64,000 nucleotides of DNA. Origin: Escherichia coli (GTDB lineage: Bacteria; Pseudomonadota; Gammaproteobacteria; Enterobacterales; Enterobacteriaceae). A program made the position numbers. This document shows positions 3,201-6,200 of the stretch, one piece after another. The stretch lies in NCBI RefSeq assembly GCF_013315695.1, contig NZ_CP054353.1. The stretch is one strand, 5' to 3'. Each line of letters begins with the position of its first letter. The stretch's first letter is position 1.

Positions 3201-6200
3201 GTTCAGACAGGATACGTATTCCCTTATCCAGACCGGACACCACTGAAATCGTCGCTAACCCCGTGATGACCACGATCAGAATTACCTGCACCGTTTCATT
3301 GATGGGCACCCCGAAAAGATGGTTCAAACCGGCATTCACCTGCAAAACACCGTAACCCAGTGATGTCGCAACGCCAAAGACCGTGCCTATAACAGCGAAA
3401 ATATCAACCGCATGTCCTACAGGTCCGTATATGCGATCGCCAATAATGGGATAGAGTGCGGAGCGCAGAGTTAAAGGCAGACCGTGACGGTAACTGAAGA
3501 ACGCCAGAATCAGCGCCACAATGGCATAAATTGCCCATGCGTGCAGTCCCCAGTGGAAAAAGGTCAGACGCATTGCTTCCTTAGCTGCCGCAACGGTTTC
3601 TGGAGTGCCAACGGGTGGCGAAAGATAATGCATTACAGGTTCGGCAACGCCAAAGAACATCAGGCCGATCCCCATCCCTGCCGAAAAAAGCATCGCAAAC
3701 CAGGAGTGGTAGCTGAAATCAGGCTGCGCATGGTCCGGGCCCAGCTTGATATCACCGTAGCGTGAGAGTCCAAGGAACGTGACACTCAGTAAAATCAGGG
3801 CCACAGCAAGGATGTAGAACCAGCTGGCATTCGTGAAGATTTGTTGCTGAAGTAGTTTAAAATTTTTGTCGGCGACATCCGGGAATACGGCGGCAAAGGC
3901 GACAAGAAGGAAAATTAGCAAAGCAGATGTAAAGAATACCGCTTTGTTAATCTGACTTGTAGACTTCTTTGGGATTGTATCATTTTCACTCATAATCATT
4001 TATTCCATTAATTAAATTCGCACTGGATAGAAGGTACTACCTCTCACAAAGTAGCAAAGTTCAACTGGCTATGCGGCGTTAATCGTAATGCATGGTGGAA
4101 TGTTGAGGTGTACTGGCAATAGCGGACACTACCATTTGTTCTTTTTTTAAGCGGCCATCTGATGATATTTTTCCCTGAAGGCTGCCGGGGAGATATTCCC
4201 CAGACGAGAGTGACGACGCTGACGATTGTAGAAAATCTCAATGTATTCCCGTATTACTGAGATGGCTTCATCCCGGTTATTAAAACGATAGTGGCTCAGG
4301 CTCTCATTTTTCAGCGTTCCCCAGAAGCTTTCCATCGGAGCGTTGTCGTAACAGTTACCTTTACGCGACATTGATGTTTTCAGACCAAACTGCTCCTGTA
4401 TGACCCGGTAATCGTATGCGCAGTACTGTGAACCTCGATCAGAGTGGTGGATTAGCCCGGCAGGTGGGCGCTGGCTCCTGAGCGCCATAAACAGGGCTTT
4501 ACCTGTCAGCTCTTTTGTCATGCGCTCTCCCATGGCGTAGCCGACAATTTCGCACGTATAAACATCTTTGATGCCAGCGAGGTACAACCATCCCTCCTGT
4601 GTGGCAACATACGTCAGGTCCGCCACCCAGACCTGATTTGGTGCTGTAGGAGCGAACGTCTGGTTCAGCAGATTTGGCGCAACTGGCAGATTGTGGTTCG
4701 AGTTCGTAGTCGCTCTGAACTTGCGTTTCTGCTTACAGCGTAGCCTTAGCTCCTTACGAAGACGTGCCAGTCGGTCACGACCAACGATGATGCCATTCTC
4801 TGCCAGCTCCGTCTGGAGCCGCCGGGTTCCATATGTTTCGCGAGTGCGGATATGTGCCACCTTAATCTCCAGTTTTAGCCGCTCATCACTTTGTTTTCTG
4901 TCTGAGGGTTCATGCTGTACCCAGTTGTAATAACCGCTCCTGGATACACCAAATACCTGACACATCGCTTCAATGGGAAATTGTTGTCGCCATTGTTCGA
5001 TTAACGCGTATTTTTCAGCGACTCCTGTGCAATTTAATATATCTCGCTCAAGGCGAGCTTCATTTAACGCCTTACGCAGTTGCAGAATTTCAGATTCCAG
5101 TTCAGCCACCGTGCGGGAACCAGGAGTACCGAGCCCTTTTCTGGCGGCGGTAACCCATTGTCCTAAAGTGCCTTCAGGAAGAGATAATCGGGAAGCGCCT
5201 TCACTGATCGAAAGTTGATTTTCAAGAACCGTTCTGACAGCTTCGGCTTTGAACTCTTTAGAGTAACGTTGGGTTTTTCTGCTCATTATTAGCTCCTTCT
5301 GATGCCATTCTATTTCAGGAAGGAGTGTCCGTTAAACTCAGGCTACCTCATTGGTTCCCACTACTTATTTGGTGGACACCACTTTGTCTAATTCGTCAGA
5401 TTCTGACCAGACGGTTCAGGCTGTACGCTTACAAACAACTAGTGGAAATACTTGTACTTTATAATTTCAAGGGTACGGGTCCGCTTCGTTTGATTTGCGT
5501 GTTTTTAACAATTTTAAAACCCAGACATACTGTTCCGGATGTGGCCCCACCAAAATTTCCACTGTTTTGTTCATTTGTCGGGCAATCATTTTATTGTCCG
5601 CGCTGGCAATGCAAGCATCCATTGGTGGCCGAATTTCAATAGTCAGGAGATGTTTTTTTTCATCATAAACCGGGAAAAGTGGTATAATCATAGCCTGACT
5701 GATGTTCATCAGACGTCCAATGATTGGTAATGTCGCTTTATAGGTCGCAAAAAAATCAGCAAATTCACTGTATTCAGGACCATGATCCTGATCTGGGAGG
5801 TAATATCCCCAGTATCCCTGGCGTACTGACTGAATAAATGGTTTTATCCCATCCTCCCGGGCATGTAAGCGCCCCCCGAATTTACGCCGTACTGAATTCC
5901 AGACATAATCAATCACTGGATTTCGTTGCTGATGAAACATGGCGGCCATTTTTTTTCCCTGAGCTGCCAGCAACATTGCAGGAATATCCACGCTCCAGCC
6001 ATGGGGAACCAGAAAAATCACATTTCTATTATTGTGTCGAATTTCCTCAAGAATTTCGAGGCCTTTCCAGAACACTCGTTTCTGGAACTTTTCCGGACCA
6101 CGAATTGCCAGTTCTGCCATCATCACTATGGATTGCAATGCTGTGGCAAACATTTTGTCGACAATTATTTCCCGTTCTGTATCACTCTTTTCTGGGAAAC

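Follow-up and report, generated by a model that had tools for sequence, protein, structure and literature searches.

The stretch of DNA analyzed here, referred to as the window, comprises 64,000 nt of Escherichia coli contig NZ_CP054353.1 (assembly GCF_013315695.1). Its minus strand carries a complete copy of the insertion sequence (IS) IS600, a member of the IS3 family, in which a 17-bp deletion has fused orfA and orfB into one open reading frame (ORF). This is the single copy of IS600 sequence in the window (4104-5350). IS3-family elements normally carry orfA in phase 0 and an overlapping orfB in phase -1, expressed together by programmed -1 frameshifting at an A-rich heptamer. Short direct duplications of the target are a trait of the family, and that of IS600 is 3 bp. 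The features of the window element are as follows.

4104..5350, minus strand: complete IS600 element with an internal 17-bp loss, 1247 bp against 1264 bp for the canonical element.
5324..5350, minus strand: left inverted repeat (IRL), TGAGGTAGCCTGAGTTTAACGGACACT, located by repeat search and the same as the canonical IRL.
4104..4130, minus strand: right inverted repeat (IRR), ending in ...CACCTCA, located by repeat search and the same as the canonical IRR.
4147..5286, minus strand: fused orfAB frame, ATG start, 379 amino acids (aa) plus stop, equal to RefSeq protein WP_000088357.1 elsewhere.
5032..5033, minus strand: deletion junction located by alignment, inside codon 85 (AAT, Asn), where canonical positions 319-335 (AAAAGCAACAGCGTATT) are missing.
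5062..5280, minus strand: HTH_Tnp_1, N-terminal DNA-binding helix-turn-helix, residues 3-75 (Pfam E 1.8e-23).
5035..5109, minus strand: putative coiled-coil/leucine-zipper heptads L63, L70, A77 and L84, read directly from the sequence.
4717..4887, minus strand: HTH_21, residues 134-190 (Pfam E 2.5e-13).
4351..4647, minus strand: rve integrase-type catalytic core, residues 214-312 (Pfam E 5.8e-26).
4618-4620, 4438-4440 and 4330-4332, minus strand: DD(35)E residues D223, D283 and E319, located by motif.

An initial sequence-only reading had described a single 379-aa ORF running from the OrfA helix-turn-helix through the DDE core. ORF listing and Pfam searches confirmed this and placed the frame on the minus strand. 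The catalytic motifs WVADLTY, HSDRGSQY and DNAPMESF were found, with 35 residues separating D283 and E319, and the protein combines the N-terminal helix-turn-helix and C-terminal DD(35)E core of IS3-family transposases. NCBIfam model NF033516 (IS3 family transposase) was matched over its whole profile with 400 bits against a cut-off of 160; together with the Pfam matches, this shows that the 379-aa ORF is no chance ORF. The inverted repeats are 27 nt long and imperfect (TGAGGT...ACCTCA), with the 5′-TG and CA-3′ ends of the family. No 3-bp target duplication was found around the element, which is flanked by TGT and TTG (plus strand). The junction DNA of the ORF is TTAAATTGCAC, and the junction peptide, residues 80-99 of the 379-aa protein, is ERDILNCTGVAEKYALIEQW. 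As first noticed, the junction has no A6G or A7 slippery heptamer, and runs of at least six A's are absent from the entire 379-aa ORF.

For comparison, the canonical reference was the IS600 copy on the invasion plasmid (pINV) of Shigella sonnei 53G (L002, positions 301-1564; 1264 bp), which the NCBI Prokaryotic Genome Annotation Pipeline (PGAP) annotates as an "IS3-like element IS600 family transposase" with a 1157-nt joined coding sequence. The initial suggestion that the element is IS600-like held over its full length. In a three-way alignment, 1246 of 1247 aligned bases were equal and there was one 17-bp gap, the near-identity over the whole length expected of an IS600 isoform; the ends and the promoter-proximal region were identical. 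The one substitution is a synonymous T>C near the stop codon, at canonical position 1215, where the canonical element and 10 other 1247-bp copies with the 17-bp deletion, compared position by position, have T. This C (window position 4153, IS position 1198; GCC, Ala378) is private to the window.

In canonical IS600, OrfA is 100 aa long (orfA stop TAA at 365). The slippery run A316-A322 is followed by G and lies in phase as A AAA AAA G, and a -1 slip there leads to a 385-aa OrfAB. A hairpin with a 9-bp stem (GCGUAUUUU...AAAAUACGC) begins 6 nt past the heptamer. It folded at -11.1 kcal/mol (z = -2.86), and only 1 of 200 shuffled sequences did as well. The corresponding window RNA showed no special structure (z = +0.32). 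Only the local hairpin was significant, as the fold of a 140-nt canonical region was not (z = -0.69), and no Rfam family for an IS600 frameshift hairpin was found with the canonical copies or the window. Of the slippery run, four A's out of seven are deleted; the whole 6-nt spacer is gone as well, and the 5′ arm of the stimulatory hairpin has lost seven of its nine bases. Because 17 equals 18 minus 1, the frame downstream of the deletion is the orfB frame, as after the natural -1 ribosomal slip. The fused product is OrfAB with KKSNSVF replaced by N, so that six residues are lost and one is changed. Where canonical IS600 has two ORFs (100 aa, and 385 aa by a -1 slip at A7G with its hairpin), the window element has one of 379 aa. 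These comparisons show that the native start gives only the 379-aa OrfAB-like protein; OrfA cannot be made as a separate regulator, and frameshifting is neither needed nor possible.

These results settle how the fused frame came about. A small indel had been offered as one of two explanations, with alignment to reference elements as the check, and the alignment shows a 17-bp deletion that removed the slippery site and fused the frames. The reference IS600 proved to be a two-ORF element with A7G and an annotated programmed frameshift, rather than one of a subgroup with a naturally fused ORF, and no hidden frameshift was found in the window ORF. The window element departs from the two-ORF, frameshifting organization of the IS3 family (one ORF, no A6 or A7 run, hairpin gone). 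Because this departure results from a 17-bp deletion in a canonical element, it is secondary, and descent from the IS3 family is therefore not in doubt. Judged by its sequence, the window element is IS600 in all tested respects save the frameshift organization, which was lost secondarily, and the target duplication.

The deletion also affects the putative zipper. F91 of canonical OrfA and OrfAB occupies the next heptad position after L84 and is lost. By analogy with IS911 and IS2, the IS600 heptads may serve in multimerization (PMC2909936, PMC3219604), and the zipper motif of IS911 has been reported to be essential for activity (Haren et al. 1998, as cited in PMC3219604). Canonical OrfAB and the protein with the deletion were modeled with AlphaFold2 from single sequences, but mean pLDDT was 36 for both, and the models were unusable for placing the lost residues; a PDB sequence search returned no solved structural relative.

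The element lies at a chromosomal site that is recognizable in other strains by the junction of the IRR with the region upstream of a BCCT-family transporter gene. Its neighbors in the window are as follows.

1996..3999, minus strand: BCCT-family transporter gene beside the IRR; the same IRR/flank junction occurs elsewhere with canonical and IS30-interrupted IS600.
5351..5432, no strand assigned: left flank, an 82-bp fragment of the end of an IS66-family element, 100% identical to window positions 25683-25764.
5467..6411, minus strand: lpxM/msbB2-type acyltransferase gene, the last of the shf-capU-virK-lpxM cassette, always linked to the deleted allele.

Counts of alleles and junctions were made over 5426 complete E. 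coli genomes. The right-hand (IRR/BCCT) junction is present in 1494 of them, and three main states were found at the locus: canonical IS600, IS600 interrupted by IS30, and the 17-bp-deletion allele. Canonical, uninterrupted IS600 occupies it in many E. coli strains, including BL21(DE3), REL606 and strain C, and PGAP gives the BL21(DE3) copy a programmed frameshift. As in the window, no target duplication flanks the canonical copy at this locus (left TCC, right ACA). Since even the canonical resident copy lacks one, a later rearrangement of one flank is indicated. In K-12 and BL21, a truncated ISEc52 abuts the IRL; the window has 450 bp more of ISEc52 (IS3 family), with the shf-capU-virK-lpxM cassette between ISEc52 and the IRL. 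At element position 95, the window has G, as do Shigella-type copies, where BL21 and the K-12 resident copy have A; this single-nucleotide polymorphism (SNP) hints that the left part of the element may have come with the cassette by recombination. Flanking SNP haplotypes did not give the descent of the deleted allele from the canonical, IS30-interrupted or 3-bp-deletion state, as the cassette alleles formed their own haplogroup and BL21 was equal to the IS30 allele.

The deleted allele was counted with 53- and 54-mers that seed only across a junction and were validated locally; the 54-mer across the deletion junction matches the window and has no match in canonical IS600. Identity bands from a 200-nt junction query were unsuited to this purpose, as canonical copies align to it as 100%-identical half-matches. 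The 54-mer was found at 469 places in 461 genomes (about 8%), with a median of one and a maximum of two places per genome. Carriers include enteroaggregative E. coli (EAEC) strain 042, O104:H4, sequence type (ST) 648 and UMNK88. The junction between the IRL and the lpxM-downstream flank is present in 487 genomes. With a 720-nt query over this junction, 28 records carried a 3-bp-deletion allele and the remainder carried the 17-bp allele; no canonical IS600 allele linked to the lpxM cassette was found among the IRL/lpxM junction matches. Since 28 and 460 together come to nearly 487, essentially every 17-bp copy lies at this one locus. Consistent with this, the exact protein was seen in ten distinct gene contexts, of which nine have the BCCT flank in common, and the differences among them are IS1 insertions or cassette deletions. 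IS600 sequences overall occupy roughly 17,000 places in the 5426 genomes and reach 43 places in a single genome. With at most two places per genome against 43 for IS600, the fused allele has not been amplified. A mobile IS would be recognized by its presence at many sites or by demonstrated circles or transposition; the population data give essentially one locus.

We therefore favor the interpretation, with a probability of about 0.8, that the window element is an IS600 copy that lost 17 bp in the orfA/orfB overlap and is now a relic bound to its locus, with little or no mobility, and not a constitutively active transposon. The allele would have arisen once, in an IS600 long resident beside the BCCT transporter gene, in a lineage that also gained the shf-capU-virK-lpxM cassette, and would afterwards have been inherited or exchanged as part of the cassette island. 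Immobility may be due to the loss of six residues at the end of the coiled-coil multimerization motif, to expression that is too low, or to both; the fused protein is thus probably impaired or too weakly expressed for proliferation. Several observations weigh against this interpretation. All copies examined have an intact ORF, and both ends match those of the canonical element, so that the sequence gives no proof of inactivity. For IS911 and IS2, OrfAB genes whose frames were fused in the laboratory are active (PMC2909936, PMC3219604), and a fused frame is therefore not in itself disabling. In one genome (L005; GCA_021649555.1, JAJAQZ010000022.1, 5183|5184), homology to the window ends exactly at the IRR of the deleted allele, and hchA/yedV/yedW/hiuH-type genes lie beyond the breakpoint, marking a large rearrangement. 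This breakpoint could reflect IS-IS homologous recombination or transposase activity, which explain it equally well. Finally, a diverged allele from ST648 (L016) has four synonymous changes and one nonsynonymous change. These changes hint weakly at constraint, given a sample of five changes and gene conversion as a confounder; the sample is also drawn from loci retrieved by exact protein identity, which biases it against nonsynonymous variants. The earlier description of the element as a possible dead copy thus fits its single-copy, locus-bound state in 461 genomes and is plausible, but with the ORF and both ends intact it is not proven.

The other explanation first offered for the fused frame was constitutive production of full-length transposase, and such a protein, freed from the OrfA brake, might be fully active or even hyperactive. 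The intact ends, helix-turn-helix and DDE residues are what an active element would require, and the rearrangement that ends precisely at the IRR in L005 could be its work. The closest precedents are the engineered IS911 and IS2 fusions, in which a single-base insertion in the A6G run gives a single ORF and full-length transposase without frameshifting; these make mainly OrfAB, which is functional (PMC2909936, PMC3219604). They retain the natural OrfAB sequence, however, whereas the window fusion is six residues shorter, with one more residue changed, at the boundary of the zipper and the middle domain. Judging from the population data, the window fusion differs from the laboratory fusions in outcome too: it is held to at most two places per genome, and a single cassette locus accounts for all copies. 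The only comparable natural fusion found, made by a 14-bp deletion, is a singleton. An active transposase therefore finds no support in the population data, and we consider it unlikely. More improbable still is a co-opted role for the fused protein, in which the host or the island would use it, for instance to regulate by binding DNA or to repress other copies of IS600, and selection would keep it intact. The exact 379-aa sequence is widespread, and the excess of synonymous over nonsynonymous changes in L016 points in this direction. However, the carriers diverge by only 0.2-0.4%, so that an ORF of 1.1 kb would be expected to stay intact in the absence of selection too, and retrieval by exact protein identity tilts the sample toward apparent conservation. 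A sequencing or assembly artefact and a natural single-ORF subgroup of IS600-like elements can, taken together, be set aside almost entirely. The same junction occurs in 461 independently assembled complete genomes, a canonical two-ORF copy occupies the same locus in BL21, REL606 and strain C, and the remainder of the element is identical to the canonical sequence.

The region removed by the 17-bp deletion is also a target of IS30. At the chromosomal locus of the window element, K-12 and OkiPb01710 have an IS600 into which IS30 inserted with a 2-bp duplication of A326-C327 (L017, L018 and L023 are loci with IS30 at this dinucleotide); K-12 retains only the left IS600 part and IS30, and OkiPb01710 retains both halves. 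The IS30/IS600 junction was found in 1655 genomes. O157:H7 also has an IS30 at this AC, but in an IS600 fragment with other genomic surroundings, and there the IS30 is turned the other way; this indicates an independent IS30 event. The IS30-interrupted IS600 of K-12 (IS30 beside the fec operon) and many other strains, next to a truncated ISEc52 and the BCCT gene, is the same IS600 insertion as the window allele and has its lesion in the same 20 bp; it differs in carrying the 1.2-kb IS30 with AC duplicated and A7G retained, whereas the window allele is without IS30 and has 17 bp gone, centered on that AC. Besides the 17-bp deletion, three further small deletions, each independent, fall within these 20 bp in other IS600 copies; all four lie on or next to the same dinucleotide.

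17-bp deletion, window and cassette locus: 7 nt + AC + 8 nt; frame-fusing.
14-bp deletion, pINV of enteroinvasive E. coli (L003, CP119444.1): 6 nt + AC + 6 nt; frame-fusing, 380 aa; a singleton.
13-bp deletion, another plasmid (L019, NZ_CP065612.1): positions 317-329; not frame-fusing.
3-bp deletion, cassette allele (L022, NZ_CP032204.1), 28 records: positions 327-329 or 328-330; not frame-fusing, in frame in both ORFs.

The 3-bp-deletion allele (IAI39, CE10, NCTC86 and AR_0013) shares the lpxM-cassette and BCCT flanks with the window, and its lesion lies within the region that the 17-bp deletion removes. It differs in keeping A7G and both frames, with a spacer shorter by 2 nt and a stem shorter by 1 bp, and in four private orfB SNPs. 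PGAP calls this allele "frameshifted" despite the A7G that it keeps.

The 17-bp gap may accordingly be a scar of IS30 activity, left when an inserted IS30 was lost along with 7-8 bp to either side of it, or when an abortive attack was repaired. We hold this origin to be possible, though a good deal less probable than one that does not involve IS30. It would account for the presence of IS30 at 326-327 of IS600 at the same chromosomal locus, for the independent use of the same dinucleotide in O157:H7, for the centering of the 17-bp and 14-bp deletions on AC, which the 13-bp and 3-bp deletions overlap or abut, and for the observation that only lesioned alleles (3 bp or 17 bp), never a canonical one, were seen with the cassette. 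IS30, however, moves by a copy-out-paste-in pathway, and excision that regenerates a target other than an inverted repeat "does not occur" (PMC9333248). No allele with both the cassette and IS30 was found in the collection, and there is no microhomology at the ends of the deletion. A frame-fusing deletion is, moreover, confined to the 61-nt two-frame window at 304-364, where about one-third of such deletions would cover AC by chance, and the ranking through which the 13- and 14-bp variants surfaced favors gaps in just this place. The surrounding 24 bp have dyad symmetry at 7 of 11 positions, in agreement with the description of IS30 hot spots as "nearly palindromic" with a 2-bp stagger (PMC9333248); such symmetry could be enough to account for the preference of IS30 as well as for the symmetric deletions. 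The IS600 frameshift window thus looks like a lesion hot spot, possibly one linked to IS30. A broader proposal, that the frameshift window is a natural IS30 hot spot and that the series of lesions records repeated IS30 attack or loss at one quasi-palindromic site, is tentative and to us rather doubtful. If true, it would mean that scars of 3n+2 bp turn a two-ORF, frameshift-regulated IS into a single-ORF element, and that one IS rewires the expression logic of another. That IS30 insertions and small deletions both gather in one stretch of 20 bp offers a small, testable lead on IS-on-IS targeting.

The window element is a minor deletion variant of a well-known element, and its sequence is already public in hundreds of genomes; no literature description of a natural fused IS600 was found. 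WP_000088357.1 and its relatives are labeled "IS3 family transposase" in hundreds of genomes, including those of EAEC 042 and O104:H4 outbreak strains. For annotation, they are best read as IS600 deletion derivatives rather than as an IS that has one ORF by nature, a correction of modest practical value. The allele also constitutes a natural experiment: about 8% of complete E. coli genomes have kept a frame-fused IS3-family transposase gene with intact ends, and it has not multiplied in them. This argues against loss of frameshift control being enough for proliferation, at least where six residues close to the zipper go with it.

Some further observations concern the surroundings of the element. 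The first 60 bp of the 82-bp segment that abuts the IRL were found in 3429 E. coli genomes, with as many as 22 places in one genome. The shf-capU-virK-lpxM cassette is best known from Shigella and EAEC virulence plasmids. In the window (5467-9364), the cassette, which begins with a polysaccharide deacetylase gene (shf) and ends with lpxM/msbB2, is chromosomal, with an IS fragment on either side and the fec operon next to it. The lpxM/IS600 junction was not found on genuine plasmids in PLSDB, where four chromosome-like "plasmid" records were its only matches and none was a pINV or pAA; a plasmid origin of this junction was rejected on these grounds. Upstream of shf, the ISEc52/IS911-like element of the window (9509-10750) is uninterrupted, and the O104:H4 counterpart has a group II intron (ltrA) (L015, 10269-12536). 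The window has one IS1 more than O104:H4, at about 19426-20190, and the two diverge beyond about 30 kb; the window is therefore not from the O104:H4 outbreak lineage. In BL21, the orfA of an IS911 copy (L021, 8524-9691) encodes only 90 aa and ends in ...EILKRLPRS, which differs from the usual end of IS911 OrfA. PGAP annotates a programmed frameshift in this copy as well, and it may represent another variant frameshift window.

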